Below are positions 4,734 through 28,139 of a stretch of DNA of 64,000 nt, one piece after another (position 1 is the first letter of the stretch; each line of letters begins with the position of its first letter). This stretch comes from Gemmatimonadota bacterium (GTDB lineage Bacteria; Gemmatimonadota; Gemmatimonadetes; Gemmatimonadales; GWC2-71-9). A program made the translations under genes and the position numbers. The notes under the pieces were generated by a model. It was not told the DNA's origin, ran no database searches, and saw only the letters and a list, made by a program, of their open reading frames with translations. The stretch lies in assembly GCA_039586815.1 (NCBI GenBank), contig JBDHJR010000004.1, positions 95,212 through 159,211 on the forward strand, given 5' to 3'.

Positions 4734-4768
4734 GCTCGGGCCGGCATGACTGGTAGGGACGGCGAAGG

Positions 4769-6654: not shown

Positions 6655-6655
6655 G

Positions 6656-7090
6656 ATGCGTGACTTGGCGGGCGCTCGAATCCTCGTTTTCAGGGTGGTC
6701 GATCGGCTGTGTGGGGCGGACGTGGACGCTGTCCGTGAGATCCTCCCCAGGCAGGCCGCCACCCGCGTCCCCGGTGCTGACGAGGCGGTGGCCGGCCTCA
6801 TCAACATCCGGGGCCAGCTCGTGCCGTTGGTCGACGGGAGTCGTGCGCTAGGCCACAGCACCGACGGCGGGGGGCAGACCATAGTGCTCCTCGAGGTTAG
6901 CGAGCAGTTGGTCGGGTTCACGGTCGACGAAGTGATCGACCTGGTGTCCGTCGCCGCCGACGATCTCTCCGACCGCGGTGACTTGCCGGGCGTCGATCCC
7001 CGTCTGGTGCGGGCAGTGGGCCGGCGCGGGGACGACTCGTTTGTTCTGCTCGATCTCGAAGCGTTGCTGACCCCAATCCTCAGCGTGTAG
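6656..7090 (+). CDS. cheW: chemotaxis coupling protein CheW (copy 1)
   Basis: CheW-like fold motifs: ILVFRVVDRLCGADVDAVREIL, LINIRGQLVPLVD, VGFTVDEVIDLV. ATG 6656 lies 1 nt after the rluD stop. Confidence 0.85.
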   Translation: MRDLAGARILVFRVVDRLCGADVDAVREILPRQAATRVPGADEAVAGLINIRGQLVPLVDGSRALGHSTDGGGQTIVLLEVSEQLVGFTVDEVIDLVSVAADDLSDRGDLPGVDPRLVRAVGRRGDDSFVLLDLEALLTPILSV

Positions 7091-7099
7091 GGAGGCTGT

Positions 7100-7462
7100 G
7101 TGAGCCATACGGTACTCGTGTGCGATGACGCGATCTTCATGCGGACGATGATCAGCGACATCCTGACGCAAGCAGGCTACGAGGTGGTGGGCGAGGCGGA
7201 GACCGGCACGCAGGCGGTCGAAAAGTACAAGCAGCTGAAGCCCGACCTGGTCACGATGGATATCGTGATGCCCGACATGGGTGGCATCGACGCCGTGCGA
7301 GAGATCGTAAGCGGCGATCCCAGCGCGCGCGTCCTGATGTGCAGCGCCATGGGCCAGCAGGCGCTCGTCGTCGAGGCGATCCAGGCAGGTGCCAAGGACT
7401 TCGTCGTGAAGCCGTTCCAGCCGTCCCGCGTGCTCGAGGCGGTCCAGCGGGTGCTCGGCTAG
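7100..7462 (+). CDS. cheY: single-domain response regulator CheY
   Basis: Receiver residues are all present: DD (VLVCDD), phospho-Asp in VTMDIVMPDMGG, CSAMG, VKPF. GTG start after GGGAGG. Confidence 0.9.
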   Translation: MSHTVLVCDDAIFMRTMISDILTQAGYEVVGEAETGTQAVEKYKQLKPDLVTMDIVMPDMGGIDAVREIVSGDPSARVLMCSAMGQQALVVEAIQAGAKDFVVKPFQPSRVLEAVQRVLG

Positions 7463-7464
7463 GC

Positions 7465-9333
7465 ATGGACCTCTCGCAGTATGCGGAGCTCTTTCTAGCC
7501 GAAAGTCGCGAACACCTCAGCACCATCAACCGGCTACTGCTGGAGTGGGAGCGGGACCCACAGGCGAGCGAGCCCGTAGCGGGGATCTTCCGGGCCATGC
7601 ACACGATCAAGGGCATGGCCGCGACCATGGGATACGCCAAGGTCGCCGACTTGGCACACCGCACCGAGAGCCTGCTCGACATCCTGCGGAGCGGTGGGCG
7701 CACGGCATCCGAGGAGCTCTTCGAGCTCCTCTTCAAGAGCGCCGACTCCCTCGATCAGGCCATAGAAGCGTCCGTGGCCGGGCGCGAATCCCAACTGGAC
7801 GTGAGCGCCGTGGTGCAGGCCGTGGACGCCGCTACGGCCAGCCTCGAGAAAGCCGGGGGCCGCCGCAAGCGCGCCCGACCTTCGGCGCCGGCCGCGGCTA
7901 CACCGGCGGGAGCCGGCCAGGCGGTGCAGGTGACGCTGGCGCCCGAGTCGCCCCTCAAGGGAGCCCGGGCACTGATCATCCTGCAGCAGGTGGGCGCACT
8001 GGGTCGCGTGCTCGCGGTCGAGCCGCCCGCCGCTGCCATGGAGGCCGACGAGTTCGACGGGCGCTTCACCTTCCGGCTGGAGACCGAGGCCTCGGACGAG
8101 GTGGTGGAGCAGGCCATCAGAAGCAGCGGCGACGTGGAGCGAGTGGAGCTCGCTTCCGCGGACGAAGCGCAGCCCGCGGCAGAGGCGGCGGGACGGCAGG
8201 CGCGCCACATCCGGGTCGACCTGCGCCGGCTCGATGCGCTCATGAACCTGATCGGTGAGCTGCTCACCACGCGCGCCGCGCTCACGGATATCAGCGTGCA
8301 GCGCGCCGACCCCGAGCTGGAGGAGGTCAGCGCCAAGTTCTCGCAGCTGGCGGGCGATCTCCAGAGTGAGATCATCCAGGCCCGCATGACGCCGGTGTGG
8401 CAGGTGTTCGACCGCTTCCCGCGTCTGGTGCGCGACCTCTCGCGCAAGCTCGACAAGCAGATCGACTTTCGCGTGGAAGGGAAGGAAATCGAGCTCGACC
8501 GCGCGATTCTGGACGAGATCGGCGATTCCCTGGTGCACCTCCTGCGCAACGCCGTGGGTCACGGGATCGAGAGCGCCAAGGACCGCAAGGCGGCGGGGAA
8601 GCCGGCCGAAGGAACCATCGAGCTGAGCGCCAGGCGGGAGCGCGCCGCGGTGGCGATTCGGGTGCGGGACGACGGGCGCGGCATCGATCGCGCCAAGATC
8701 CTGGATCGGGCGAAGGAGCTGGGTTTCGTGGACGCGGATGTGGACTCGCTGAGTGACGAGGTGCTGTTGCGGGTGCTCTCGCAGTCCGGCATGAGCACGG
8801 CTGACGAGGTGTCGGACCTGTCGGGACGTGGCGTGGGAATCGACGCCGTGGTGCACGCGACGAGGGCCATGGGAGGTGGGGTCGAGGTGCATACGACCGC
8901 GGGTGAAGGCACCACCTTCACGCTGCGTCTCCCCACCACGCTGGCGATCGTCCGGGCCCTCATCACGCGCGTGGGAGAGGAGCGTTACGCACTCCCCATT
9001 ACGCATGTGGCGGAGACACTGGACCTGGGCGCCGCCCAGGTCACGCGCGCCGACGAGCGCGACGCGATGACCCTGCGGGAGGGAGTGGTGCCGCTGGTGT
9101 ACTTGCGGCGCATGCTGGAGGTCGTGGGAGACGAGCCCAAGCGCAGTCCCGTGATCGTGCTGCAGATTGGAGACCGCCGCTCCGGGCTCGTGGTGGACCA
9201 GCTTCTCGGCCAGCAGGAGATAGTAGTGAAGGCCTTCACCCCGCCGCGGGGTATGCTGCCCATCTTCAGCGGCGCGACAATTCTAGGAGAAGGGCGCCCG
9301 GTCCTGATTCTCGATGCGGCCGGCTTAGTCTAG
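7465..9333 (+). CDS. cheA: chemotaxis histidine kinase CheA (no receiver domain)
   Basis: Hpt box FRAMHTIKGMAATMG, HATPase N/G boxes (HLLRNAVGHGIE, DDGRGID, GRGVGIDAV), and a C-terminal CheW-like P5 domain. Start at ATG 7465 (MDLSQYAELF). Confidence 0.92.
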   Translation: MDLSQYAELFLAESREHLSTINRLLLEWERDPQASEPVAGIFRAMHTIKGMAATMGYAKVADLAHRTESLLDILRSGGRTASEELFELLFKSADSLDQAIEASVAGRESQLDVSAVVQAVDAATASLEKAGGRRKRARPSAPAAATPAGAGQAVQVTLAPESPLKGARALIILQQVGALGRVLAVEPPAAAMEADEFDGRFTFRLETEASDEVVEQAIRSSGDVERVELASADEAQPAAEAAGRQARHIRVDLRRLDALMNLIGELLTTRAALTDISVQRADPELEEVSAKFSQLAGDLQSEIIQARMTPVWQVFDRFPRLVRDLSRKLDKQIDFRVEGKEIELDRAILDEIGDSLVHLLRNAVGHGIESAKDRKAAGKPAEGTIELSARRERAAVAIRVRDDGRGIDRAKILDRAKELGFVDADVDSLSDEVLLRVLSQSGMSTADEVSDLSGRGVGIDAVVHATRAMGGGVEVHTTAGEGTTFTLRLPTTLAIVRALITRVGEERYALPITHVAETLDLGAAQVTRADERDAMTLREGVVPLVYLRRMLEVVGDEPKRSPVIVLQIGDRRSGLVVDQLLGQQEIVVKAFTPPRGMLPIFSGATILGEGRPVLILDAAGLV

Positions 9334-9341
9334 GAGCAAGC

Positions 9342-9959
9342 ATGGTAGACCTGCGAGATCTCGAAGAACTACAGCTGGACGCCCTGAGGGAAGTCGCCAA
9401 CATCGGCGCGGGGCACGCTGCGACGGCGCTCTCGCAGCTCACCGACCGTCGCATCATGATCAGCGTGCCGCAGATCTACGTAGAGCGCCTCGAGCAGGTG
9501 CCGGATATCCTGGGTGACGCTGAAGACGTCGTTGCCGCCGTGCTGATGCACATGCTGGGGGACCTGACGGGGCGAATGCTGCTCGTCGTGCCGCAGTCGA
9601 ACGCGATGCTGCTGTGCGACCTCCTGCTGCGGCGCGAGCCGGAAACCACGAGCGAGTTCGGCGATCTCGAGCAGTCCAGCCTCAAGGAGGCGGGCAACAT
9701 CCTGGGAGGTGCGTACATGAACGCCCTCTCGGACTTCATGGGGATGATGCTGCTTCCCTCCGTCCCGAGCCTGGCCGTGGATCTCTCGGGCGCGGTGCTG
9801 AGCACCACGCACCTGAGCTTTGGACGGGACAAGGACGTGGTGTTCTGCGTCGAGACCAACTTCCACTTCGCTGAAGCGGATGCGATGCTGCGCGGCCATT
9901 TCCTGCTGCTGCCCGACGTCGCCTCGTTGAAGACCATCTTCGACGCCATCCGTATCTGA
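9342..9959 (+). CDS. cheC: CheC-family CheY-P phosphatase
   Basis: Two copies of the CheC active-site helix: LREVANIGAGHAATALSQL and LKEAGNILGGAYMNALSDF. 205 aa. Confidence 0.8.
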   Translation: MVDLRDLEELQLDALREVANIGAGHAATALSQLTDRRIMISVPQIYVERLEQVPDILGDAEDVVAAVLMHMLGDLTGRMLLVVPQSNAMLLCDLLLRREPETTSEFGDLEQSSLKEAGNILGGAYMNALSDFMGMMLLPSVPSLAVDLSGAVLSTTHLSFGRDKDVVFCVETNFHFAEADAMLRGHFLLLPDVASLKTIFDAIRI

Positions 9960-9963
9960 CTCG

Positions 9964-12642
9964 ATGTCCACGGGCGCGCTGCCGGAGAAGGACCGCGACG
10001 TCCTACGGTCGTTCGCCCGCCGGATCGACCCCTCTGACGCCGGTGCCCACAACAACCTTGGGGTGCTGTACCATCGCAAAGGGTTGGTGGAGGACGCGAT
10101 CGCGGAGTTCCAGCGGGCGCTCGAGCTGGATCCGAAGATGCTCACCGCCCGGCGCAACCTGGAGATCGCCTACAAGGCGTCGGGGTTCTACGATCGTCGC
10201 ATAGCGGAGCTCAGCGAGCGGCTGCGCGCGGATCCCGAGGACGGCAACGCCCGCTGGGAGCTGGCCCGCGCGTATGCATCGCTGGGGCAGTACGACGAAG
10301 CGGCGCGCGAGTTCCACGCACTGATCGAACGCGATCCCAACAGCGTGGCCGCGATGATCCAGCTGGGACTCGCCGAGAAGAGCCGCGGCAAGCTGGAAGA
10401 GGCGGTCGAGTGGCTGGAGCGGGCCCGCACCCTGGATGCCGAGAGCAGCGTCATATACCAGTATCTCGGCGAGCTGCAGTACAACCGGGGGCGCAACACG
10501 GAGGCCCTCGAGGCGCTGCAGCAAGCCGCCCATCTCAACCCCGAGAATGCCGACGCCCACTACCAGATGGCGTTCGTGCTGGGCGATCTGGGGCGGCACG
10601 AAGAGGCGCGGGCCGCGACGAAGAATGCGATCGAGCTGAACCCTACGCTGGGCCGCGCGCAGGCCAACCTGACGCTCGAGTCGATCGCCGAGCAGCGAGA
10701 CCGTCCCTCGGCGCCGTTCCCGGCGCAACCCGATGTAGATGAGACCCTGGCCCACTACAACCTGGGTCGGGCCTTTCGGCGGCAGGGCTACTACAACGAG
10801 GCGCTCAAGGAGTACCGGCTCGCGCTGGAGCGGGGTGAGGATCGCAAGCTCGTGCTTCAGGCCCTGGCCGAGGTGAACCTGCTGAAGCGCGACCACGCCG
10901 CGGCGCTGGAGCTGTACGACAAGCTGGTCGCCGAGATTGCCGACTCGCCCAGGCTGTGGAACGAGCGAGGCGTGGTGCTGCACCAGCTCGGTCGGTTCGA
11001 GGACGCCGTCGGCTCGTATCAGCGGGCGGTGCACCATGGGGCCGACTACGCCCTCGCGCGAAACAACCTGGCCATCACCCTGGCCCAGGTGGGCAGACCC
11101 GAGGACGCGGTCGAGATGCTGGGGGAGGCGCTCAGGCACGGCCCCGACCTGACCATACCGCGGCTCAACCTGGGATTGCTGCTCTACAGCCTGAGGCGGT
11201 ACCAGCTCGCGCTCCAGGCGTTCCGGCGGGTGCTGGAGCAGGACAACGCGTCGGCCGCCGCGTGGAACGGACTGGGTCTGGTGCTCACCGAGACCGAACG
11301 GGCCGAGGACGCGCGCAACGCGTTCTCGCGCGCCGTCGAGGCCGACCCGCAATCAGCAGAGGCGCACTACAACCTGAGCTTTGCGCTGTCGCGCCTCGGC
11401 GATTTCGACGGTGCGCTCAGGGCGGTCACGCGGGCGCAGACACTCGATCCCTACTACGTGCCACAGAAGTTCCGGCTCGCCATCGACCTGCAGTACGAGG
11501 ATCCGGGGATCTCGGTGGTCCCGGAGATCTCGGCCGACGTGGCGGCGGAGTTGACGAGCCAGAGCCTCAAGCTCGAGCCCGGGACGCTCGACAGCCTGTT
11601 CCGCGAGCTGGAGCGTCCGGCGCCCAAGCCCGCTGCGCCAGCCAAGCGGGGCGATCCCTTTGGCCTGGCACGGGACTACCTCAATAAGGGGCTGTTCGAG
11701 CTCGCATCCGCCGAGGCGAACCGCGCGCTGAGCCGCGGGGCCAATGAGGTGGAGGCCCAGGTGTTGCTCGGCGAGATCTTCGCCCGCCGCGGACTGCACG
11801 GCGAGTCGCTGGAGCGGTACCGGGAGGCACGGCGACTGGCGCCTGACCGGGCCGACGTGCGCCTGGCCGAGATGCGGGAGCTGCTGGCGTTGGAGCGCGG
11901 CGCGGAGGCGGTGGAAGATGCCACGGCGCTGGCGGCGGAGCGCCCCGACGACGTGGACGTGCTGGTTGTGCTGGCCCGGGCGCGGCTCGCCGCAGCCGAC
12001 CCGGGCAACGCGATGCAGGCGCTCCAGGCGGCCCGCGCGCGCGCGCCGCAGCGGGCCGACCTGCTGGAGCTGGAGGGAGACATCGCGGCGGGAATGCGCA
12101 ACTGGACCGCGGCGCGAACCGCGTACGAAGGAGCGCTGGAGCTCGACCCCCGGTTGGTGCGGGTACGCTTCGCGCTGGGCAAGGTCCACGAGGCGCGCGA
12201 AGACTGGGGGGCGGCAGAAGCATCGTACCGGGCGGCGCTCGATCAGCTGCCGACGTTCTTCGATGCCGCGGTTGCGCTTGCCGAGCTGCATCGTAGAACC
12301 GGGGCGCCGCGTGAGGCAATCGCTCTTCTGGCGGACCTGCTCACGGCCGACTCCGCCGCGCTCGACGCACTGCTGGTGCTGGGCAAGGCGCTGCTCGACG
12401 ACGGACGAGTGGAGGAAGCGCTGCACTCGTTCGACCGTATCCTGACGCACGATCCGCATCATCTGGCGGCCCTGTTCTTCTCGGGCGTCGTGTTCGCCCG
12501 TCAGCGGCGGTACCAGCAGGCAGTGGAACGGTGGGATCGGGTGATCGATCTGGACCCGTCCGGCCCCTACGCGCAGCGGGCGCGCAAGCACGCGCGCACG
12601 GCGCTGGACCTGCGGCACATCTTCAAGTCCGAGGTGGCGTAG
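9964..12642 (+). CDS. large tetratricopeptide-repeat (TPR) protein, 892 aa
   Basis: TPR consensus (A..Y..AL.L.P....A..NLG) repeats end to end. No TM segment, HAMP or MCP signature seen. Confidence 0.8.
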   Translation: MSTGALPEKDRDVLRSFARRIDPSDAGAHNNLGVLYHRKGLVEDAIAEFQRALELDPKMLTARRNLEIAYKASGFYDRRIAELSERLRADPEDGNARWELARAYASLGQYDEAAREFHALIERDPNSVAAMIQLGLAEKSRGKLEEAVEWLERARTLDAESSVIYQYLGELQYNRGRNTEALEALQQAAHLNPENADAHYQMAFVLGDLGRHEEARAATKNAIELNPTLGRAQANLTLESIAEQRDRPSAPFPAQPDVDETLAHYNLGRAFRRQGYYNEALKEYRLALERGEDRKLVLQALAEVNLLKRDHAAALELYDKLVAEIADSPRLWNERGVVLHQLGRFEDAVGSYQRAVHHGADYALARNNLAITLAQVGRPEDAVEMLGEALRHGPDLTIPRLNLGLLLYSLRRYQLALQAFRRVLEQDNASAAAWNGLGLVLTETERAEDARNAFSRAVEADPQSAEAHYNLSFALSRLGDFDGALRAVTRAQTLDPYYVPQKFRLAIDLQYEDPGISVVPEISADVAAELTSQSLKLEPGTLDSLFRELERPAPKPAAPAKRGDPFGLARDYLNKGLFELASAEANRALSRGANEVEAQVLLGEIFARRGLHGESLERYREARRLAPDRADVRLAEMRELLALERGAEAVEDATALAAERPDDVDVLVVLARARLAAADPGNAMQALQAARARAPQRADLLELEGDIAAGMRNWTAARTAYEGALELDPRLVRVRFALGKVHEAREDWGAAEASYRAALDQLPTFFDAAVALAELHRRTGAPREAIALLADLLTADSAALDALLVLGKALLDDGRVEEALHSFDRILTHDPHHLAALFFSGVVFARQRRYQQAVERWDRVIDLDPSGPYAQRARKHARTALDLRHIFKSEVA

Positions 12643-12645
12643 ACC

Positions 12646-13797
12646 ATGGCTATCGAGGGGCCACTCAAGGAACTGGGGATCCACGATGTCTTCCAGTTGC
12701 TCGACCTGAGCCGCAAGACGGGTGTGCTCACGGTGGCGTCGAAGCTGCGGCACAACCAGGGGACGGTCTACTTCGACGCCGGCGCCGTGGTGTACGCGGA
12801 GATCCAGAGCAACCCACATCCGTTGGGTGGCATGCTGGTTCGGGCCGGGAAGATCACCGAGGCGGATCTGCACCGGGCCCGCGACATGCAGGAGGGGGGT
12901 GACGGGCGGCTCCTGGGTGAGGTCCTGCTGGACATCGGCGCCGTCAATCAGCGGGAGCTCGAGCGCCAGGTGAGGTTCCAGGTCGAGGAAGTGATCTTCG
13001 AGGTCATGAACTGGCGCGAGGGCTACTTCTCGTTCGTGGAGGGTCCGCTGCAGGAAGTCCCGGCCGATGCCACCGTGCGAATCACCACGGAATCGGTGCT
13101 CATGGAGGGCGCACGCCGGATCGACGAGTGGTCGCGCATCGAATCCAAGATCCCGCACAGCGGAGTGGTGCCCGCGCTCGCACCCGCTGTGGGCGGTGAG
13201 AGCGGCGGACTCGACCTGCTTCCGTTCGAGTGGGAGGTGCTGGCGACGATCGACGGCGAGCGGGACCTGCGTGCCATCGCCAGCGCCGTGGCCCGCTCCG
13301 AGTTCGACGTGGCCAAGACCATATTCGGACTCGAGAGCGCGGGGCTCCTGACCGTGGCCGATAGGGGAGCGGCTGCGGCGTCCGCGGAGCTGTCCGGCGA
13401 CGTGCGGGGATGGGTGGAGCGCGCCGAGGCGGCCCTCGAGGGTGGTGACCTTGCCACGGCACGCGAGCTTGCCGAGACGATGCGGGAGCGGTTCCCGCAC
13501 GAGGCCGCAGTCCACTTCGTGCTGGGACGCGTGAGCCTCGCGGGCGGCGACGCCGGGTCGGCCGAGGAGTGCCTGCGGCGCGCACTCAGGGTGGATCCCT
13601 TGTTCGGAGTGGCGCACCGCCTGCTGGGAGACGCCCTGGCGCTGCAGGGGCGCTTCGGCGAGGCGGTTGAGTGGTGGCAGCGCTGGCTCAAGATCGGCGA
13701 GCAGGAGGGCGGAAGCGCCGAGGAGATACAACAGGTGCGCGACGCTGTCGCCGCCGCCCAGAGCCTCGGCACCTACCTGAGAGGGTCACGTGGCTAG
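12646..13797 (+). CDS. DUF4388 (PATAN-type) domain protein with C-terminal TPR
   Basis: N-terminus MAIEGPLKELGIHDVFQLLDLSRKTGVLTV...GTVYFDAGAVVYA is the DUF4388/PATAN signature. A middle small helical domain and C-terminal TPRs follow. Confidence 0.8.
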   Translation: MAIEGPLKELGIHDVFQLLDLSRKTGVLTVASKLRHNQGTVYFDAGAVVYAEIQSNPHPLGGMLVRAGKITEADLHRARDMQEGGDGRLLGEVLLDIGAVNQRELERQVRFQVEEVIFEVMNWREGYFSFVEGPLQEVPADATVRITTESVLMEGARRIDEWSRIESKIPHSGVVPALAPAVGGESGGLDLLPFEWEVLATIDGERDLRAIASAVARSEFDVAKTIFGLESAGLLTVADRGAAAASAELSGDVRGWVERAEAALEGGDLATARELAETMRERFPHEAAVHFVLGRVSLAGGDAGSAEECLRRALRVDPLFGVAHRLLGDALALQGRFGEAVEWWQRWLKIGEQEGGSAEEIQQVRDAVAAAQSLGTYLRGSRG

Positions 13798-14590
13798 CGA
13801 CGTCCAGGCCATGACGGCCGAGCTGGCGCGCGATCCGTCGAGCCTCGTCTTTCTGGAGCTGGGCGAGGCGCTGCGACGCGTGGGGCAGCTCGATGCGGCG
13901 AGCCGCGTTCTCGTCAACGGCCTGGAGCAGCATCCCGAGCTCGTCGAGGGCCGCGACCTGTACGCCCGCGTGCTGGTGGACAGCGGTGACTATACGCGCG
14001 CCGCTCAGGTGTGGGCCACGGTGCTGGAATTGGAGTCGAGACATCTCGGCGCGCACAAGGGGCTCGGTTTCCTGAGCTTCCGCTCCGGTGATCTGGACAG
14101 CGCGATGGAGCATCTCGAGCTGGCTCTCGCAGCCGATCCGACCGACGAGAGCGTGGTTCGCGCGCTGCGCACGGTGCGCGATGCGGCACAGGAGGCGCAG
14201 GCAGAGGCGGCGCCGCCGAGTTCGGGCGAAGACCCGCTGTTCGCCGGGCTGGAGGGCGCCGAGCAGGGATTGCTGCTGGTGGACGAACGCGGCCGGGTGC
14301 TGGGCGGGCGGTTGCTCGACGCCTCCGGCGGAGAGGTCTCGGAGATGGTGGCGGCGTACCTGGCGGGTGCCGCACAGGAGGCTGACCGTACGGCCCGCAT
14401 GCTCGGCCTGGGTGAGTGGCGCTGGATCGTGGCCGAGGGACCGGACGGAAACGTGTACGTGACGCCGCCTACGACCGAAACCCTGTTGCTCATCCTGCGC
14501 GACCAAAGCGTTCCGTCGGGCCGGCTCGCGATGCTGGCCGAGCGCGCGGGCGCGGTGGCACGAACCTGGCTCGAGGGGCAGCAGCTGTGA
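13790..14590 (+). CDS. TPR - roadblock/LC7 fusion protein
   Basis: N-terminal half is TPR (LELGEALRRVGQLDAA...). C-terminal half (LLLVDERGRVLGG...WRWIVAEGPDGNVYVTP...LLLILRDQSVPSGRLAM) looks like a roadblock/LC7 fold. GTG start overlaps the previous gene by 8 nt. Confidence 0.7.
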   Translation: MASDVQAMTAELARDPSSLVFLELGEALRRVGQLDAASRVLVNGLEQHPELVEGRDLYARVLVDSGDYTRAAQVWATVLELESRHLGAHKGLGFLSFRSGDLDSAMEHLELALAADPTDESVVRALRTVRDAAQEAQAEAAPPSSGEDPLFAGLEGAEQGLLLVDERGRVLGGRLLDASGGEVSEMVAAYLAGAAQEADRTARMLGLGEWRWIVAEGPDGNVYVTPPTTETLLLILRDQSVPSGRLAMLAERAGAVARTWLEGQQL

Positions 14591-15404: not shown

Positions 15405-15408
15405 CGAC

Positions 15409-16008
15409 GTGTCTCTAGTCAACTTCACCACCCGCGAGATCACCTGCAAGATCGTCTACTACGGTCCGGGACGGTCGGGCAAGACCACGAACTTGCAGTA
15501 CATCTACGGGCGCGTGCCTGACGATCGGCGCGGCCGCATGGTGTCGCTAGCCACCCAGACCGATCGCACCCTGTTCTTCGACTTCCTGCCGCTCGAGTTG
15601 GGCAGCATATCGGGGTTCACGACGCGGTTCCAGCTCTATACGGTGCCGGGACAGGTCTACTACAACGCCACCCGCAAGCTGGTGCTCCAGGGGGCGGACG
15701 GGGTGGTGTTCGTCGCGGACAGCCAGGCGAGGCAGCTCGAGGAGAACGTGGAGAGCCTGCAGAACCTGCAGGAGAACCTCCTTGCCCAGGGTGCCGACGC
15801 GCGCGGCATGCCGCTGGTGTTGCAGTACAACAAGCAGGATCTGCCGCAGGATCTCGTGCTCTCGCCAAAGGAGCTGGACGACGCGCTGAACTTCTGGAGC
15901 GTGCCCAGCTTTTCGGCGGCGGCGCTCGCCGGCACGGGTGTCTTCGAGACGCTGAAGGCCGCCTCGGAGCAGGTGCTGCGCAAACTGAGTCAGGAGGAGC
16001 CGGTGTGA
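15409..16008 (+). CDS. mglA: MglA-family Ras-like small GTPase
   Basis: Aligns by eye over its whole length with my recollection of M. xanthus MglA. Matching elements: [25 protein letters not shown] (P-loop 15463-15486), [15 protein letters not shown] (intrinsic Arg), LYTVPGQV (Thr replaces the DxxG Asp, catalytic Gln), VFVADSQ, YNKQD. GTG start. Confidence 0.9.
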
Positions 16009-17993
16009 CCGAGGAGCTGAATCCCAAGTTCAGCTTCGAGACCCTCGTGGTCGGCGCCGCGAACCGGCTCGCGGTGACTGCGGCTCGGACTGTAGCGGAG
16101 TCGCCGGGCGCTGCGTACAACCCGCTGTTCGTGTACAGCCCCACCGGGTTGGGCAAGACCCACCTCCTCATGGCGATTGGGCAGCTCGCCAAGCAGCTCG
16201 CTCCCGAGAGCCGCGTCGAGTACATCACGATCGACGAGTTCGTGGAGGCGCACCACGCCGCCGTGGCGGCGGGGCAGAGCGAGGCGCTGCGCAGCCGCTA
16301 TGCGCAGATCGACATTCTCTTGGTGGACGACGTGCAGTTCCTGACGCACCGCCGCGAGATGCAGGCCGAGCTGCTGCGAATCGTTCAGGAGCTGCAGACC
16401 GCCGGGAAGCAGGTCGTGCTCACCAGCGACAGTCCTCCCTCCGAGATCGAAGATCTGGACGAGCGCCTGTTGTCGCGCTTCGATGCGGGCCTGCTGGTGG
16501 ACATCGGCCCGCCCGACGCGGAGACGCGGCTCGCCATTCTGATGCGTCGCACGGAGGACCGCGGGGCGCAGTTTGGGGAAGGGGTGTTGGATGCAGTGGC
16601 TCGGTTCGAGGTGCCCAACGTGCGGGAGCTTCTCGGGCTGCTCAACAAGCTCGTGGCCTACCAGGCCGTGAGCGAGTCACCCATCACCCCGGCCGCCGCG
16701 CACGAGCTGCTCGCCGGGGAAGTGCGGACCCAGGCCCCGATGACGACCGGGCCGGCGCCGGCGCTCACCGCCATGGGTGAGCCGGTCGCGGAGCCCGAGG
16801 AGGAGCGACCCGACGAGTTCGCCGATTTCCTATCCGACGTGGCGCACACGGTGGAGGAGCAGGTGGAGGCGTGGCGCTCCAAGCTGGGCGAGGCGATCAC
16901 GCGCTGGGAGGCGGAGGGATTCCGCACCGGACGCCTCGAACGGCTGTTGGATCAGGATGTGCCGGTCTCCCTAGACCGGGTGCTGAAGCAGTTCGAGAAG
17001 GACGTCGAGCAGCTCCGCTCCATGCAGGCCACGATGGCCAAGCTCGATCCCGAGCGCGCCGAGGACCCCGTGTTCAACGATCCGGACAGCCTGGACGAGG
17101 TTGACCACCTGGTGCAGACCGTGCTGCACGAGGTGGGACCGCCCCCGGGCCCGTCTGCCGCGTGGGAGCTGGCGTCATTCGTGGACGGCGAGGCCAACAA
17201 GGTCGCGCACAACTCGGCGCAGGAGGTGGTGACTCAGCCGGGCGTGCGCTACAACCCGCTGGTGCTTGCGGGACCCACCGGCGTGGGCAAGACGCATCTG
17301 CTGCACGCGATCGGCCACGAGCTCGCCGCCCGGCCCGAAGCCGTAGTCGCGTGCCTGTCGGCGCAGCAGCTCATCGACGAGCTGGTGCAGGCAATCGACG
17401 GCGAGCGCATCGATCTGTGGCGCACTCGCTATCGCCGCGCGACCGCGTTCCTGCTGGACGATGCGCACCTGCTCGCGGGCAAGGAGCGCACCCAGGAGGA
17501 GGTGTTCCACCTCTTCAACGAGCTGTTCGACGCGCAGCGCCAGCTGGTGTTCACCACGGCCAAGGCACCGCGCGAAGTCGAGGGCCTGGACGAGCGCCTG
17601 GTGTCGCGGTTGGAGGGCGGGCTGGTGGTCAACATGGAGAGTCCCGACCGTGAGCTCCGCCGCGCCATCGTGGTTCGCAAGCTCCAAGAGGACGTCGGTG
17701 CAGCGGATGACGAGTTGGCCGACTACCTGGCCGCGCGTCCCGCCGACTCGATTCGATCCGTGATCGGCCTGCTGCAGCGTGTCATGGTGGCGGCCGATGC
17801 TCAGGGAGCCGCTCCCAGCGCCGCCCTGGCGCGCGAGATGGTGGAAGGCGCAGCGCCGGCACGTCCTCGCGTGTCGGCTCCGGTGCGCACGAGCGGCATC
17901 ATGATCTCGCCTTCCGGCGGCGTGAAGAGCCGTGAGAAGATGGTCTGGTTCTGGCCCGACCCGGCCCAGCGCGTGATCGAGGAGATGACCTAG
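16005..17993 (+). CDS. tandem DnaA-type AAA+ ATPase (two domain-III modules, no domain I or IV)
   Basis: Module 1: [18 protein letters not shown], Walker A SPTGLGKT (16137-16160), Walker [37 protein letters not shown]. Module 2: Walker A GPTGVGKT (17271-17294), [20 protein letters not shown]. An acidic linker of about 170 aa joins them. No HTH or DnaA-signature C-terminus. Confidence 0.8.
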
Positions 17994-19609
17994 TGGCCAT
18001 CAAGGGCAGCCTCAAGGAGGCGTCGCTCGCCGACGTGCTGCAGCTCCTGGCGCTCGGTCAGAAGACCGGCTGTCTCTCGGTCACCGACCGCACCAATCTG
18101 GGGCACATCTACTTCAACCGCGGACAGATCACCTACGCGTCGCTCGTGAACCGCCGCGACCGGATCGGTGACATCCTGGTCAAGAACGGCAAGATCACAC
18201 AGGAGCAACTCCACGATGCCATCGATCAGCAGATTCGGCAGCGCGACAAGCGGGTCGGAGAGCTGCTGGTCGAGTCGGGCGCCATCGCGCGCGAGGAGCT
18301 GGAGCATTACATGCGGCTCCAGATCGAGGAGGCGGTCTTCTTCCTGTTCACCTGGACACGGGGTTCGTTCAACTTCGAGGCCGACGTCCACCCAGAGGAG
18401 CAGGACTTCCTCGTGGCAATCAAGCCGGAGTCCCTGGTGTTGGAGGGGGCGCGCCGTGTGGATGAGTGGAGCCTCATCGAGAAGAAGATCCCGTCGCTGG
18501 ACATCATCTTCACGGTCGACCAGCGCCGCATTGCCGCCTCACAGGTGAGCCTCACCGAGCAGCAGCAGCGATTGGTGCCGCTGCTCGACGGCTCCCGCGA
18601 CTTCACCAGGCTCGTCGAGGACTCAGGGCTGGTGGAGTTCGATGTGGGCAAGGCGCTGTACGGGCTGATCACCGCGGGGTTCGTGCACCGCACTGGGCGG
18701 AGTGAGCCGCAGGCGGCCGACGTCGGCGACGCCCGCGTGGACGAGCATCGCAATCTCGGGGTCGCATTCTACAAGACGGGGATGTTGGACGAGGCGACCC
18801 GCGAGTTCCGCCGGGTGGTGGACCTGCGGCCCTCCGACGGGAGTGCCTACTTCCACCTCGGGCTCATTGCGGTGAAGCAGGCCCACTGGCAGGAAGCTGC
18901 GGGGCATTTCAATCAGGCCGCCGAGCGGGGTGGCATGCGGCCTGCAGTGCTGCACAACCTGGCGCTGGCCTACGAGAAGGGCGGCCGTCTCGAAGAGGCT
19001 GAGGGCACGTATGCGGAGGCGGCGAGCAAGGCGCGCCGCGACACGCAAATCATGACGAGCTGGGGCATAGTCGCGTTGCAGCGCGGCGACCACGAAGTCG
19101 CCGCCGGCCGACTCGATCGGGCGCGCGAGGTTGGGGGAGACGAGATCCCCAGCGCCATGTGGTTCTGGGCGCGCTCCCTCTCGGCGGCGGCGCTCGAGGA
19201 GGTCGAGGAGGCCGAGGCGCTGCTGCGCGAAGGTCTCGAGGCCCATCCCGAGAGCGTGGTGCTGCGCAATAACCGAGCGGTGCTGCAGGAGCTCCTGGGA
19301 GACCTCGATGGGGCCGAGGAGACGCTGCGCGCGGCGCTGTCCGAGGACCCCTCCGTGCCACAGCTCTCCAAGAACCTGGGTGATCTCCACTATAGGGGAG
19401 GGCGCTACGACGAGGCCTGGGACGCCTACCAGCGCGCGGTCAAGCTGCAGCCCGAGCTGGGTGACGACGTCTACTTCAAGCTCGGCAACATCGCCTACAA
19501 GCGCCTCGACCGGGAATCGGCCGCCGAACTGTGGCGCAAGGCACTGGAGTTGAATCCCGGTCACGAGCTCGCCCGCACGAATCTCGACACCGTGAGCGCC
19601 CTTACGTGA
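17993..19609 (+). CDS. DUF4388 (PATAN-type) domain protein with long C-terminal TPR array
   Basis: MAIKGSLKEASLADVLQLLALGQKTGCLSV...GHIYFNRGQITYA is paralogous to the N-terminus of the 12646 gene. Same middle domain (LEGARRVDEWSLIEKKIP), then TPRs. GTG overlaps the previous TAG by 1 nt. Confidence 0.8.
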   Translation: MAIKGSLKEASLADVLQLLALGQKTGCLSVTDRTNLGHIYFNRGQITYASLVNRRDRIGDILVKNGKITQEQLHDAIDQQIRQRDKRVGELLVESGAIAREELEHYMRLQIEEAVFFLFTWTRGSFNFEADVHPEEQDFLVAIKPESLVLEGARRVDEWSLIEKKIPSLDIIFTVDQRRIAASQVSLTEQQQRLVPLLDGSRDFTRLVEDSGLVEFDVGKALYGLITAGFVHRTGRSEPQAADVGDARVDEHRNLGVAFYKTGMLDEATREFRRVVDLRPSDGSAYFHLGLIAVKQAHWQEAAGHFNQAAERGGMRPAVLHNLALAYEKGGRLEEAEGTYAEAASKARRDTQIMTSWGIVALQRGDHEVAAGRLDRAREVGGDEIPSAMWFWARSLSAAALEEVEEAEALLREGLEAHPESVVLRNNRAVLQELLGDLDGAEETLRAALSEDPSVPQLSKNLGDLHYRGGRYDEAWDAYQRAVKLQPELGDDVYFKLGNIAYKRLDRESAAELWRKALELNPGHELARTNLDTVSALT

Positions 19610-20421
19610 AGTCCACCGAGCGCGATCCCGCGCTGGTCGCGTTACTCGGGAAGATCGGCGAGGTACGTGGCTTCTGCGGCAACGCGTACAAAGAAGGATG
19701 TCTTCGCCGGCGCATCGCCGTGCGGATGCGTGCGCGGGGGGTGCACACCTACGAGCAGTACGCTCAGGTGCTCGACGGCGACACGGACGAATACGACCGC
19801 CTGCTCGACACCATTACCATCAATGTCACCAAGTTCTATCGCAACCGGGACACGTGGCAGCGGATCGCGGATGCGGTGCTACCCGAGCTGTGGCAGGCAC
19901 GTGAGGGCCGGGTGCGCTGCTGGTCGGCCGGCTGCGCGTCGGGCGAGGAGCCCTACACCCTGGCCGTCCTGTTCCTGGAGCTGGAGCGCTCGTTTCCGGG
20001 TGTACCGGGCGGGCGCAGCCGCATCGACGCGACCGACCTCGACCGCAAGAGCCTCGCGCACGCGGAAGAGGGTGTCTACCGGCCGGCGGCATTCGACGAG
20101 ATGCCGCCGGCGCTGGTGTCGCGCTACGTGCTGGGCGACGACTCTCGTCAGTTGGCGCCCGAGGTCAAGGGTATGGTGCGCTTCCACCAGCACGACCTCT
20201 TGCGCGATGCGCCGCCTCATCCTCCATACGACCTCATCATGTGTCGCAACGTGGTGATCTACTTCGACCGCTCCACGCAGGAGCGGCTCTTCCGCGGCTT
20301 CGTGGATGCGCTGCGGCCGGGCGGGTACTTCGTGCTGGGCAAGGTCGAGACACTGGTGGGTGAAGTGCGCCAGGAGCTCGAGCTCGTGGACGCCAGAGAG
20401 CGCATCTACCGACTGCCATGA
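19606..20421 (+). CDS. cheR: chemotaxis protein methyltransferase CheR
   Basis: TINVTKFYRN, RCWSAGCASGEEPYTLAV (SAM site), IMCRNVVIYFD. GTG 19606 in a GTGA overlap. Confidence 0.88.
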   Translation: MKSTERDPALVALLGKIGEVRGFCGNAYKEGCLRRRIAVRMRARGVHTYEQYAQVLDGDTDEYDRLLDTITINVTKFYRNRDTWQRIADAVLPELWQAREGRVRCWSAGCASGEEPYTLAVLFLELERSFPGVPGGRSRIDATDLDRKSLAHAEEGVYRPAAFDEMPPALVSRYVLGDDSRQLAPEVKGMVRFHQHDLLRDAPPHPPYDLIMCRNVVIYFDRSTQERLFRGFVDALRPGGYFVLGKVETLVGEVRQELELVDARERIYRLP

Positions 20422-20912
20422 GGAACACGAACGACCAGACCGTCATCGGAATGGGCGAGTACGCCGTGATCGACGGCAGCGGCACGCTGACGGCGCTCGG
20501 GCTCGGGAGCTGTGTTGCCGTGATCCTGCACGATCCCGACGGCCAGGTTGGAGCGATGGCCCATGTGCTGCTCCCGGCGCAGTCGCTCGCGCGACGGCGC
20601 AACAATCCCGCGCGCGCGGCCGACACCGCCGTACCGCTGCTGGTGGAGCAGATGAGGCAGCGGGGTGCGGTGCTGGAGCGGACGCGGGCCCGTCTCGTGG
20701 GAGGCAGCACGATGTTCGGCGACCTGCTGCCCACCGGGAGCGTGCACATCGGTGAGCGCAACGTGCTGGCGTGCCGCACGGCACTGCGGCAGGCTGGGGT
20801 TCCCATCGTAGCCGAGGCGGTGGGTGGGCGCGCGGGGCGCTCGGTCTTCTTCGACGTGGGGGAGGGGAAGGTCAGAGTGCGGGTGGTGGGCAAGGTGGAG
20901 ATCGAGCTGTGA
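20418..20912 (+). CDS. cheD: chemoreceptor glutamine deamidase CheD
   Basis: [14 protein letters not shown]...[21 protein letters not shown] motifs; 164 aa. Confidence 0.88.
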
Positions 20913-21976
20913 GCCGAGTGGCGTCGGTACTGGTGGCAGACGACAGCGCTTTCATGCGGCGTGTCCTGTCGGACGTGATCGACGCCTCTGACCGGTATCG
21001 CGTCGTGGCGATCGCGCGCGACGGGCTCGACGCCGCAGAGAAGGTGCACCGCTTCGAGCCAGACGTCGTGACGATGGACATCGAGATGCCGCGGCTCGAC
21101 GGGCTCGGCGCCATCGGCTACATCATGAGCGAGTCGCCACGACCGATCGTCGTGGTCAGCGCCTATGCCGGACCCGGCACGGAAGCGGCGATTCGCGCAC
21201 TCGAGCTCGGCGCGGTGGAGGTGGTCGCGAAGCCGCGGGGCTCGGATCGCGAGGCGTTGGAGGCCCTGGGGCCGTCGCTCCTGGCGGCGCTGGACGCGGC
21301 GATGGCGGCGGAGTTGGATCGCGTGCCAATCCTGGCCCGCGCGCCGGTTCCCGTGGTGGTGCCGCCCCCGGTAGCGTGGGTGAAGGGGAGGGCGCGGTAC
21401 GCCATTGCCATTGCCGCGAGCACTGGCGGTCCGAGGGCGCTGGCAGAGGTGATCCCGCGACTGCAGGCGGGCAGCGACGCGGCGGTGCTCGTGGTGCAGC
21501 ACATGCCGGCAAACTTCACGCGGAGCCTGGCGGAGCGTCTCAATGCGTCGAGTATGGTACGAGTGGTAGAGGCGGACGACGGCGCGCCGCTGCTGGCGGA
21601 CACGGCCTACGTAGCTCCCGGGGATTATCACATGCGCGTCGAGTCGGGCGTGGACGGCCCCCAGCTGCAGTTGCGCCAGGACGAGCCCGTTTGGGGGGTG
21701 CGGCCGGCCGCGGATCCCCTGTTCAGGTCGGTAGCCCGGCTGTTCGGGGCGCAGTCGCTCGGCGTGGTGCTGACGGGAATGGGGCGCGACGGTGCAGAGG
21801 GATTGAGGGCAATCCGCGACGCCGGTGGCTTCGGGATGGCGCAGGACGAGGCGTCGGCGGTGATCTATGGGATGCCGCAAGCCGCGGTTGCCGCGGGAGG
21901 AGCCGAAGAGGTGGTGCCGCTCGACGCTATCGCATCACGCATCGAGGCGCGGCTCGAGGGGCGCGTAGGGGCATGA
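20909..21976 (+). CDS. cheB: protein-glutamate methylesterase CheB (receiver + esterase)
   Basis: Receiver [12 protein letters not shown]...[12 protein letters not shown]. Esterase triad context [29 protein letters not shown] 20909 in a GTGA overlap. Confidence 0.9.
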
Positions 21977-22401
21977 AGGGCTATCTTGTGGTTCAGGCCG
22001 GCGGAGTGCGCTACGGTGTGGCGCTGGCAGACGTGCGGCAGGTCATCGAGTTGCCGCGGGCGTACGCCGCACCAAGCACGCATCGCGCCGTGCTGGGCCT
22101 GATTCGAGCGGGTGGGCGGCTCATGCCGCTGGTGGACCTCGGCGCGCTGGTGGAAGTGGAGCGCGACCCCGCCCCAGAGGCGATGTTGGGGGTCGTTACG
22201 CGATGCGCGGAGCGGGTAGTGGCGCTGGCGGTGGACGATGCAGAGGCTGTGGTGCACGAAGACCCCGGGCCCCTGCCCGATGGATGGGATCTTCCCTGGG
22301 CCTCCGGGGTGGCCCGGGAGGGAGAGAATCTGATCCCGGTTCTAGACATGGACGTTCTGGCTGAGCGGCTCGTTTCCGTGAGCGCAACCGAGGAGAGATG
22401 A
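21973..22401 (+). CDS. cheW: CheW (copy 2)
   Basis: [23 protein letters not shown]...[18 protein letters not shown]...[15 protein letters not shown] 21973 in an ATGA overlap. Confidence 0.8.
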
Positions 22402-22874
22402 GTACGGGAGACGAAGTCCAGCTCGTCACCTTTCGTGTCGGTGGACACGACTTCGCGGTGAACATCTTCCAGGTGGAGCGTATCCTGCGTTACCAGGATC
22501 CCGCTCCCCTGCCAAAGGCTCCCGCCTATCTCGAGGGTGTGGTGCGGTACGGCGACGCGGTCGTGCCACTGATGGATCTGCGCAAACGCGTCGAGGCGGA
22601 TGCGCCGGTGCGCGACGACACCCGCATCATGATCCTCGAGCTCGAGGGCGAGAAGATTGGTGTCGTGGTGGATGCCGTGCAGGAGGTGCTGCGCGTGGGG
22701 GCGGAGCGGATCAGCCCTCCGTCATCGCTCGTGCGGGGGCTGGCGGCGAAGTACATCAGCGGTGTGGTCGCGGACGGCGATCGTACGTTCGTCGTGCTCC
22801 ACGCCGGCAAACTCCTCTCGTCGAAGGAGCGGCTGGAGCTCGAGAAGCTGCAAGTGGAGGCGTCTCATGAGTGA
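22398..22874 (+). CDS. cheW: CheW (copy 3)
   Basis: QLVTFRVGGHDFAVNIFQVERIL...EGVVRYGDAVVPLMDLRKR...IGVVVDAVQEVLRV. Confidence 0.85.
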   Translation: MSTGDEVQLVTFRVGGHDFAVNIFQVERILRYQDPAPLPKAPAYLEGVVRYGDAVVPLMDLRKRVEADAPVRDDTRIMILELEGEKIGVVVDAVQEVLRVGAERISPPSSLVRGLAAKYISGVVADGDRTFVVLHAGKLLSSKERLELEKLQVEASHE

Positions 22875-23724
22875 CTCCCTCATATCGTCGCTGCGCGGCG
22901 AATACGACTCCATCGCCCGGCGTCTCGGCTCAGATCCCGGCGGCGAGGAGCGCGAAGACCTCAAGGCCGAGATCATCACTCTGTTCAAGACCGTCGATCA
23001 GACGATTGCCGATCTCTCCGAGCTCAAGGAGAGCATCCGCGTGCTGGTGGACAAGTACAAGGAGCTGTCCCAGAGCGAGAGCGGCGACCAGGCGCCGCAG
23101 TTCACGGGCGCGGTTCCCGTCATGCAGGATCACCTGGGCGCCACCACGTTCATCGAGAAGGGCTGGAGCCTCATATCGCTGGGTGACTACGGCGGCGCGA
23201 TCCAGTCGCTCAACAAGGCGCTGCAGCTCTCCCCCGGCGACGTGCAGGCGCACTCGCTGCTGGGTTGGGCGCAGATGTTGAGTGAAGACTACGACTCGGC
23301 CATGGGGACCTTCCAGATGGTACTGGCGAAGGAGCCGGCGAATTCGCTGGCCCGCATCAACGTCGGGTACATCTGTCTCAAGAAGGAGATCTTCGGCGAG
23401 GCGATCGAGCACCTGTCCAAGGCGATCAGGCTCGACAACGACAAGAAGGCCACGCTCTACGCGCACTTCTATCTCGGGCTCGTGTACCTGGAGCGCGAGA
23501 TGTACGAGGACGCCCAGACGTTCTTCGGAAAGACCCTGAAACTCGGCCCGAACCTGATCGAAGCCTACTACGAGCTGGGGCGCTCGTACTGGCATGCAGG
23601 GGACCGCGATGCGGCCCAGCGGGCATGGGAGGAGGGGTATCAGGCCAACAAGTTCAATCCGTGGGGCAAGCGCTGCAAGGAGACGCTGGACCTGGTCGCG
23701 CAGGGCCAGGAGCCGCCACGCTAG
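22867..23724 (+). CDS. coiled-coil + TPR protein
   Basis: N-terminal about 70 aa is heptad-rich, then TPRs (AIQSLNKALQLSPGDVQAHSLLGWA, AIEHLSKAIRLDND...). ATG 22867 overlaps cheW by 8 nt. Confidence 0.75.
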   Translation: MSDSLISSLRGEYDSIARRLGSDPGGEEREDLKAEIITLFKTVDQTIADLSELKESIRVLVDKYKELSQSESGDQAPQFTGAVPVMQDHLGATTFIEKGWSLISLGDYGGAIQSLNKALQLSPGDVQAHSLLGWAQMLSEDYDSAMGTFQMVLAKEPANSLARINVGYICLKKEIFGEAIEHLSKAIRLDNDKKATLYAHFYLGLVYLEREMYEDAQTFFGKTLKLGPNLIEAYYELGRSYWHAGDRDAAQRAWEEGYQANKFNPWGKRCKETLDLVAQGQEPPR

Positions 23725-24803: not shown

Positions 24804-24817
24804 GTTGACCGCCATTT

Positions 24818-24891: not shown

Positions 24892-24950
24892 TCTCGCTTG
24901 ACGATGACCTGGCCCGGGTGAGACCGGGCCGCCAGAACCGGAGGGCGCAA

Positions 24951-26877: not shown

Positions 26878-26906
26878 CTCGCATCATGACGTCTCCAGTG
26901 AGTACC

Positions 26907-28136: not shown

Positions 28137-28139
28137 CGC

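Follow-up and report, generated by a model that had tools for sequence, protein, structure and literature searches.

A Gemmatimonadota operon that interleaves Che genes with an MglA/MglB pair and a tandem DnaA-like ATPase

To our knowledge, signalling from a Che pathway to the polarity GTPase MglA has been worked out in detail in Myxococcus alone, and there the partners were identified one after another at dispersed loci. A 64,000-nucleotide stretch of a Gemmatimonadota genome (contig JBDHJR010000004.1, positions 95,212 to 159,211; hereafter the window) raises the question of whether sensor pathway and polarity switch can be encoded as one system: its positions 6656–23724 hold 18 consecutive + strand genes for Che proteins, an MglA/MglB pair with further roadblock proteins, TPR and PATAN proteins, and a tandem DnaA-like ATPase, here called AAA2. 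The best explanation of these genes, which we hold with about as much confidence as doubt, is that they are an operon vertically inherited in Gemmatimonadota and encode a multi-input polarity module with phosphorelay, cyclic di-GMP (c-di-GMP) and GTPase inputs that likely regulates pili. A soil-abundant phylum here lists candidate polarity partners in one tightly packed operon, and the operon is a natural test case for the wiring of sensing to cell polarity, probably that of type IV pili.

Packing and conservation of the operon

All 18 reading frames give clean translations with exactly the starts and stops of the original prediction, Pfam agrees with the domain contents given there for every product, and the 17 junctions are as listed, comprising 11 overlaps of 1, 4 or 8 nt and six gaps of 2–9 nt. 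The plan of the operon is [W-Y-A-C]-[TPR892...PATAN2]-[R-D-B-W-W]-[TPR285]; two Che blocks are interleaved with non-Che genes, and the Che pathway is split in two by the non-Che genes nested between cheC and cheR. The last gene, TPR285, is grouped with the non-Che set on account of its position directly after PATAN2 in loci without Che genes and in distant loci reduced to a trio (both described below). A consensus scan, which is blind to non-sigma-70 promoters, found no sigma-70-like promoter inside the unit; terminator-like sites number 8 there versus 5.6 ± 2.2 in shuffled sequences and are not in excess, and the strong internal terminators that could have split the unit were not detected in the consensus scan. 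Rfam reports no leader RNA or riboswitch in the window, its sole matches being two tRNAs. Upstream, ileS, a DksA/TraR-like gene, lspA and rluD are packed as tightly as the operon itself, the start of cheW1 lying 1 nt past the rluD stop, and the sequence suggests that the transcription unit may extend beyond the 18 genes on both sides.

A profile scan for AAA2 over one genome per GTDB species finds a relative in at least 564 genomes, and the best 80 loci of that scan are all from Gemmatimonadota except for two bins, of which one is labelled Myxococcales and the other is unclassified. All named relatives are Gemmatimonadota. Gene order and junctions were compared in 84 related loci by tblastn of the 18 window proteins, and the order proved to be the same wherever the contig is long enough, down to 35–45% AAA2 identity and including a 4.6-Mb contig. 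Estimated junctions are ≤30 nt in 71–100% of loci for all 17, and in ≥90% of loci for 15 of the 17; the boundaries between Che and non-Che genes are as tight as the internal junctions, and the AAA2/PATAN2 junction, at which stop and start overlap by 1 nt in the window, measures −1 to 0 nt in each of 68 loci. Independent gene calls on orthologous contigs give the same packing. The pattern is far beyond chance, and since the order recurs across the phylum, in dozens of species-level genomes, the linkage of Che and Mgl genes is not the isolated rearrangement that it might have been when seen in one genome. Nor are these open reading frames (ORFs) that arose by chance or a chimera of assembly or binning, an explanation in favour of which nothing was found and which is already refuted: all 18 products have significant family matches, and assemblies made independently in many studies share the order. 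Median identity to the window proteins is highest for CheY (91%), followed by MglA (81%), CheC and TPR285 (71% each), PATAN2 (66%) and AAA2 (55%), and is lowest for CheW2 (42%).

The MglA switch, the tandem ATPase and its PATAN partner

By its sequence the Ras-like GTPase encoded by mglA (15409–16008, 199 aa) is a true MglA orthologue of Group 1. It matches M. xanthus MglA (6hjh) with E = 2e-73 and T. thermophilus MglA (3t12) with E = 1e-65 over residues 1–194, that is, over its full length, and it carries the P-loop GPGRSGKT, the Arg of RTLFFDF aligned with M. xanthus R53, T78-VPGQ and NKQD; the Thr at position 78 replaces the Asp of DxxG, as it does in MglA Group 1. Directly upstream lies mglB (14934–15404, 156 aa), the candidate gene for the cognate GTPase-activating protein, whose product has a roadblock fold with a C-terminal helix, matches M. 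xanthus MglB (6izw_B) with E = 3.6e-9 over residues 17–154, including the C-terminal ...NLF helix tail, and has the NCBIfam MglB model as its best match. The MglA/MglB pair of the original prediction is thus genuine, as are, by Pfam, the extra roadblock, TPR and PATAN proteins that accompany it. Two of these are further roadblock proteins: a TPR-Roadblock fusion (13790–14590, 266 aa) with TPR matches and Robl_LC7 at residues 159–236, which also matches the NCBIfam MglB model weakly over residues 161–255, and a stand-alone Roadblock/LC7 protein (14587–14937, 116 aa; Pfam Robl_LC7, E = 2e-11) that matches the Robl_LC7 protein 7f8m in the PDB with E = 4e-6. A designation of the 116-aa protein as MglC-like was dropped, as no MglC structure was matched. 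The TPR proteins are TPR892 (9964–12642, 892 aa), which consists of TPR throughout and matches Pfam TPR families, and TPR285 (22867–23724, 285 aa), in which an N-terminal non-TPR region of ~90 aa precedes the Pfam TPR match.

AAA2 (16005–17993, 662 aa; two Bac_DnaA matches in Pfam) is a tandem of two ATPase modules of the DnaA domain III type. The N-terminal half matches domain III of B. subtilis DnaA with E = 2.7e-53 and is ~50% identical to it, the C-terminal half is more Hda-like (171 bits on the Hda model), both halves carry Walker A and B motifs, the box VII Arg and sensor II, and the N-terminal half carries, where the B-motif falls, a basic residue that does not vary. An AlphaFold model (pLDDT 81) matches B. 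subtilis domain III (8bv3) in Foldseek with TM 0.90 and joins the two modules by a helical linker at residues 271–377. DnaA domains I and IV are absent from AAA2, which has no DnaA_N or Bac_DnaA_C match in Pfam, and the Hda clamp-binding motif QL[SP]LPL is not present at its N-terminus; AAA2 is on these grounds neither an initiator nor an Hda orthologue, despite a score of 493 bits on the NCBIfam DnaA equivalog TIGR00362 (cutoff 343.9), a cutoff that it passes because it contains two copies of domain III. Orthologues of AAA2 are named "chromosomal replication initiator protein DnaA" in JGI and public records, a systematic mis-annotation in Gemmatimonadota. The operon exposes this DnaA look-alike and suggests that the ATPase fold of DnaA has also been put to use outside replication. 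Following a disordered stretch of low confidence, AAA2 ends in an invariant tail, EKxVWxWPD...RVIEE (residues ~616–662, positions 17850–17993), which is retained in an 897-aa variant behind a long acidic low-complexity spacer; its sequence gives the tail the look of a peptide for docking, perhaps to a TPR domain of the operon. A tandem form that retains a DNA-binding domain also exists, in the 673-aa protein P0189, where two DnaA ATPase domains are followed by a C-terminal Bac_DnaA_C helix-turn-helix domain.

The resemblance to DnaA and Hda raises the alternative that the operon is a cell-cycle or cell-pole module, in which AAA2 would cap DnaA-ATP filaments or promote their ATP hydrolysis, or bind single-stranded DNA, and PATAN would touch the divisome, coupling polarity and chemosensory state to replication, division or budding. 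Besides the near-50% identity of the N-terminal half to domain III, with its box VII Arg, sensor II and basic B-motif residue, and the Hda score of the C-terminal half, the location of the operon agrees with such a role: it lies between divIVA-ileS-(DksA/TraR-like)-lspA-rluD (188–6654) and the division and cell wall (dcw) cluster mraW, ftsI, murE...ftsZ (26819–42071). Bactofilin genes lie near AAA2 in one distant locus (L087), and PatA is reported to interact with the divisome (PMC7380572). However, AAA2 lacks DnaA domains I and IV and the clamp motif, the position next to dcw, kept across Gemmatimonadales, is lost in more distant relatives (L083 and L085–L088), and relatives of AAA2 are fused to signalling domains (receiver and MshEN), two of their neighbourhoods being pilus loci. 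To these points we add that all characterised MglA systems known to us act on motility machines, and we consider a cell-cycle role improbable.

The partner of AAA2, PATAN2 (17993–19609, 538 aa; Pfam DUF4388, PF14332, E = 5e-38), and the related PATAN1 (12646–13797, 383 aa; same family, E = 1e-30) are PATAN-TPR proteins, in which TPR repeats occupy the C-terminal position where PatA-type regulators have a receiver. The N-terminal PATAN domain of PATAN2 contains an insertion that forms a four-helix unit in the AlphaFold model (pLDDT 78). The MshEN motif that binds c-di-GMP consists of two tandem 24-residue units, RLGxx(L/V/I)(L/V/I)xxG(L/V/I)(L/V/I)xxxxLxxxLxxQ (PMC5013675), and PATAN2 has a pair of this type at residues 57–80 (RIGDILVKNGKITQEQLHDAIDQQ) and 87–110 (RVGELLVESGAIAREELEHYMRLQ), separated by a 6-residue spacer. 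It scores 45.9 bits on the NCBIfam c-di-GMP_motif model (cutoff 38); the best fold match of the insert is MshE with c-di-GMP (5htl, 1.7 Å over 56 columns), and the insert also superposes on GSPII-B of T. thermophilus PilF. Sequence and model thus identify the alpha-helical unit inserted in PATAN as a double motif of the MshEN type, putatively for c-di-GMP, which would tie PATAN domains to this messenger. PATAN1 has a single degenerate MshEN-like motif, which at 32 bits falls below the NCBIfam cutoff. With the MshEN insert removed, the PATAN core (model of 17993–18742) gives weak Foldseek matches to GATOR1/SEAC subunits, with E values of 0.03–0.1 and high root mean square deviation. GATOR1/SEAC subunits contain longin/roadblock domains, and the models hint that PATAN may have a roadblock/longin-like GTPase-platform fold.

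Che genes, natural variants and distant relatives

The first Che block comprises cheW1 (6656–7090, 144 aa; Pfam CheW, E = 5e-27), cheY for a single receiver domain (7100–7462, 120 aa; Pfam Response_reg), cheA with the Pfam architecture Hpt-P2-dimerisation-HATPase-CheW (7465–9333, 622 aa) and cheC for a predicted phosphatase of phosphorylated CheY (9342–9959, 205 aa; Pfam CheC). The second comprises cheR (19606–20421, 271 aa; CheR and CheR_N), cheD (20418–20912, 164 aa; E = 1e-25), cheB for a receiver and methylesterase (20909–21976, 355 aa; CheB_methylest and Response_reg), cheW2 (21973–22401, 142 aa; Pfam CheW) and cheW3 (22398–22874, 158 aa; CheW, E = 2e-32). CheY is ~70% identical to T. maritima CheY (1tmy, E = 5e-52), the best PDB match of the CheA core is T. 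maritima CheA (E = 1e-88), with His46 of CheA within HTIKG, and the best NCBIfam match of CheC is CheC_Thermotogales (169 bits), below the equivalog cutoff; for CheY it is a haloarchaeal CheY model, likewise below its equivalog cutoff. Receiver domains occur in the operon in CheY and CheB only, CheA having none. Both the F1 core and its auxiliaries are present according to Pfam (CheA-CheW-CheY, CheB/CheR, CheC and CheD), F1 being the flagellar/archaellar class of the Wuichet-Zhulin scheme (summarised in 10.1101/2022.05.07.491037). Because CheC, CheD and a P2-containing CheA occur together with Thermotoga-like CheY, CheA and CheC, the Che genes are closest to F1, of the Thermotoga/Bacillus type, a class assigned here by proxy, from the closest relatives. 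What had been called a complete Che pathway has every one of CheA, CheW, CheY, CheB, CheR, CheC and CheD and is missing a receptor gene in cis: no signalling domain of a methyl-accepting chemotaxis protein (MCP) was found in the 64-kb window or in the 84 related loci (1.4 Mb). An ordinary flagellar-class CheA with its MCP and flagellar genes close by would have spoken against the original interpretation, and this is borne out by half: CheA is F1-like, but no MCP or flagellar genes lie nearby.

Such a class assignment is the starting point of a second alternative, that two separate systems share one transcript, an F1-like Che pathway serving flagella through the binding of phosphorylated CheY (CheY~P) to FliM, and the Mgl, AAA2 and PATAN proteins serving otherwise, their interleaving being historical and kept by regional synteny. 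The Thermotoga-like CheY, CheA and CheC and the F1 flagellar/archaellar set of CheC, CheD, CheB, CheR and P2-containing CheA are what this alternative would predict, and the genomes that have lost Che genes bear on it directly.

In two of these genomes (L004 and L005) both Che blocks are missing, so that TPR892 comes next after rluD and TPR285 next after PATAN2; a third (L003) has no second Che block, its contig not reaching the upstream region. L017 retains only cheY, a diverged cheA and cheC among the Che genes, and different subsets of cheR, cheD, cheB and cheW are lost in L068, L081/L082 and L084. CheY of L017 remains 83% identical despite a CheA down to 38% and the loss of the adaptation genes. 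The core proteins are no more diverged in the Che-less genomes, of which there are only about three. Two further loci (L083 and L089) are reduced to rluD-roadblock-AAA2(-PATAN/TPR-peptidase) without MglA. Because some lineages drop the Che blocks and keep the rest, the Che layer is accessory; a second layer consists of MglA/MglB with the additional roadblock proteins, and AAA2 with PATAN-TPR is the most persistent part. The description of the system as hard-wired from chemosensing to polarity is accordingly overstated, the Che genes being dispensable additions, both blocks of which are gone in L004 and L005 and the downstream one in L003, with partial sets left in L017, L068, L081/L082 and L084. 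The tandem DnaA-like ATPase, noted at first as a component class without a described counterpart, is far from peripheral: AAA2 and PATAN-TPR make up the evolutionary core.

Relatives of the core also occur in other contexts; the taxonomy of L085–L092 can be deduced only from GC content and, in one case, from a cluster-mate of CheY. The latter case is L085 (49% GC), whose CheY clusters with that of a metagenome-assembled genome labelled Ca. Cloacimonetes. Its positions 1136–12067 read cheW-cheY-cheA-ATPase-CheW protein-cheC-TPR-PATAN-AAA2, with an AAA_22/STAND-like ATPase and a 344-aa CheW-domain protein inserted after cheA, with other flanks, and with no MglA, MglB or roadblock protein. L086 and a second contig carry the bare trio AAA2-PATAN/TPR-TPR, and in L087 (50% GC) an orthologue of TPR892 (31% identity, E = 2e-84) lies directly upstream of AAA2, the bactofilin genes being a few genes upstream. 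In L088 (69% GC; 9249–11465) the AAA2 relative is fused to a C-terminal receiver domain and its second ATP site is degenerate; Hpt-REC-Hpt-REC follows (REC, receiver; Hpt, histidine phosphotransfer domain), and a PAS hybrid kinase and a REC-HD-GYP protein adjoin. Two giant proteins combine an N-terminal Pfam MshEN domain with two DnaA-like modules each, their MshEN region aligning to residues 57–111 of PATAN2, and L091 (4309–15923) and L092 (2681–13179) hold several such MshEN-DnaA-like genes, encoding up to 1990 aa, between pilD and pilB; in L091 this cluster and pilB are followed by pilT-pilC-pilS-pilT-pilR. This evidence from distant contexts is independent of synteny within the phylum. The Che-less, MglA-less and trio-only forms amount to a natural deletion series, and the domain fusions of the relatives point to who regulates whom.

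The distant contexts and the decaying loci also count against two separate systems on one transcript. Che genes are linked again to TPR-PATAN-AAA2 in the unrelated 49% GC context of L085, and a receiver is fused to AAA2 in L088; the interleaving requires two insertion events, and the Che/non-Che boundaries overlap by 4–8 nt in most genomes. In addition, several lineages hold CheY at 83–93% identity while the adaptation genes decay piecemeal, which is unusual for a working flagellar pathway. Nevertheless, loss of Che leaves the core unchanged, and no FliM-like CheY-docking peptide was found among the non-Che proteins of the operon, both of which would be expected of separate systems, as would the conserved flanks and CheY surface considered below. 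On balance we regard this alternative as unlikely, though a more serious competitor than a cell-cycle role.

A proposed polarity module among known systems

In the reading as a multi-input polarity module, the links between proteins and the output are what we infer from the evidence above. The core would be the non-replicative AAA2, translationally coupled to PATAN2 and accompanied by the TPR proteins, to which Gemmatimonadales would have added the MglA/MglB switch with two more roadblocks and, in two interleaved blocks, an accessory F1-like Che phosphorelay. Receptors encoded elsewhere would control CheA, and CheY~P, reset by CheC, would act as an optional modulator on the roadblock/MglB/TPR complex or on AAA2, a step that would parallel the action of FrzX and FrzZ on the MglA module in Myxococcus; direct signalling from CheY to MglA is presumed here. 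The MshEN-like insert of PATAN2 would read c-di-GMP, and the GTP- or GDP-bound state of MglA, set by MglB and the roadblock paralogues, would together with the ATP state of AAA2 place the TPR/PATAN scaffold assembly. AAA2 itself would serve as an ATP-dependent switch or scaffold whose two intact DnaA-type sites could close together or oligomerise, while the TPR proteins would be scaffolds, possibly docking the AAA2 tail. The target would be the type IV pilus motor at the cell pole and hence polar pilus assembly.

By analogy, polar type IV pilus assembly is the most likely output, for four reasons: the MshEN-DnaA-like genes of L091 and L092 have pil neighbourhoods; PilB1 and PilC are binding partners of the PATAN domain in Synechocystis (10.1101/2021.06.11.447907); MglA systems act on pili in M. 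xanthus, where MglA acts with the TPR protein SgmX to stimulate the formation of pili (PMC7519303), and in Bdellovibrio, where MglA controls pilus-dependent predation (PMC3983030); and PATAN proteins are among the candidate regulators of pilus formation in M. xanthus (PMC11580455). The tie of AAA2 to signalling is based on the Che linkage in L085, the receiver fusion in L088 and the MshEN-DnaA fusions.

Several observations weigh against a coupled, pilus-regulating module. The flanks are as syntenic as the operon, with rluD upstream and the peptidase gene, a TPR-like ORF and mraW downstream, which makes the conserved order within the phylum a weaker argument for functional coupling than it seems. 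In its alpha4-beta5-alpha5 face, CheY hardly differs from T. maritima CheY, so that CheY~P may simply bind FliM. No flagellar or pilus genes were found in the 64-kb window, and pilus, flagellar and MCP genes are lacking in the Gemmatimonadota loci examined. By regular expression only some PATAN2 orthologues retain an intact MshEN motif, with two relaxed motifs in 27 of 76 and one in 38 of 76. Finally, the modules of the MshEN-DnaA-like proteins are only 39–41% identical to AAA2, about as far from it as true DnaA, and these proteins have no AAA2 C-terminal tail; judged by sequence, their presence in pilus clusters may reflect independent recruitment.

A broader proposal is put forward tentatively, with more doubt than belief: tandem DnaA-domain-III proteins without DNA-binding domains might be unrecognised signal-regulated ATPase switches that control polar pili or pole identity, with lineage-specific inputs in the form of a fused receiver, a fused or partner MshEN, roadblocks, MglA or a Che pathway. 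If this were true, the operon of Gemmatimonadota would rank as their most elaborate form, and an initiator ATPase fold would have been re-used as a polarity hub.

Among known systems, the Frz-MglA system of M. xanthus is similar in having a Che-type kinase pathway whose CheY-like outputs have a single domain, along with a true MglA, an MglB with a C-terminal helix, extra roadblock paralogues, TPR effectors and a polarity module that appears to work without the Che layer. The two differ in that mglA lies away from its signalling partners in Myxococcus and Bdellovibrio, PATAN neighbours being occasional, and frz and mglBA are separate loci in M. xanthus (PMC4316618), whereas both are interleaved in one operon here. 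The operon has CheC, CheD and an F1-like Che set, with no CheA-receiver fusion of the FrzE type and no receptor of the FrzCD type in cis; it has no dual-receiver output of the FrzZ kind, no RomR or RomX was seen, and it adds PATAN-TPR proteins and a tandem DnaA-like ATPase, which have no counterpart in the Myxococcus module. With neither a CheA-receiver fusion nor an MCP, the operon does not belong to the Frz-type pathways, although it may work like Frz-MglA.

The cyanobacterial Tax/Pix systems with PatA (PATAN-REC) likewise combine a Che-like pathway with PATAN proteins, and their PATAN output binds PilB1/PilC and sets pilus polarity (10.1101/2021.06.11.447907). PATAN in the operon is instead fused to TPR, CheY is separate, MglA/MglB and AAA2 are present, and the Che class is another one. 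F1 chemotaxis of T. maritima and B. subtilis shares the gene set CheA(P2)-CheW-CheY-CheB-CheR-CheC-CheD, with the CheY similarity described above, but the set here has no MCP or flagellar genes nearby, is split by nine non-Che genes and loses its adaptation genes piecemeal. AAA2 shares the fold and all ATP-site motifs of DnaA and Hda, twice over, and differs from them in its tandem form with helical linker and conserved tail, in its lack of domains I and IV and of the clamp motif, and in being encoded in signalling operons. Like the MshE/PilB ATPases, the operon places a double RLGxxLLxxG...Q motif beside an ATPase (PATAN2/AAA2), and L091 and L092 fuse the two; unlike them, the ATPase is a DnaA-like AAA+ protein and not a secretion ATPase, the motif is inserted in the PATAN domain of a separate, translationally coupled protein, and the spacer has 6 residues versus 5. 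The actinobacterial conservon CvnA-D is a precedent for a conserved operon that joins a sensor kinase to a roadblock protein and a GTPase of the MglA family (PMC4316618), but with a membrane histidine kinase in place of CheA, a DUF742 partner and a Group 2 GTPase, and with no PATAN, TPR or AAA+ proteins.

The literature searched contains no description of a Che-Mgl operon, of gene linkage between MglA and Che, of a tandem DnaA-like ATPase family or of MshEN-DnaA fusions. A table in PMC4316618 gives the neighbourhood of G. aurantiaca GAU_1409 as "PATAN>MglA>-PATAN>", and the unlabelled gene in it presumably occupies the position of AAA2. The operon may represent a form of chemosensory control of the MglA polarity switch, with a new class of effector ATPase within it.

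Beyond the 18 genes, the window has a GC content of ~68%, and rluD (5563–6654, + strand; Pfam PseudoU_synth_2 and S4) is the upstream neighbour, possibly co-transcribed. A possible 19th gene (23742–24584, + strand) encodes a Peptidase_MA_2 metallopeptidase (Pfam) with an HEMAH motif and a C-terminal transmembrane helix; its start is uncertain (23625, 23661 or 23742), and its product bears a faint resemblance to flagellinolysin, far below the cutoff. It is followed by a 61-codon ORF for a hydrophobic membrane protein (24618–24803), and nearly all related loci keep both in this place, L083, the variant reduced furthest, among them. The unit must end before tRNA-Val(TAC) (24817–24893, + strand; ARAGORN and Rfam), which sets its downstream limit. 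This tRNA gene and tRNA-Asp(GTC) (26803–26878) flank a 609-aa exported TPR-like ORF (24918–26747), and since the longest ORF of mraW begins (26819) within tRNA-Asp, mraW must start later.

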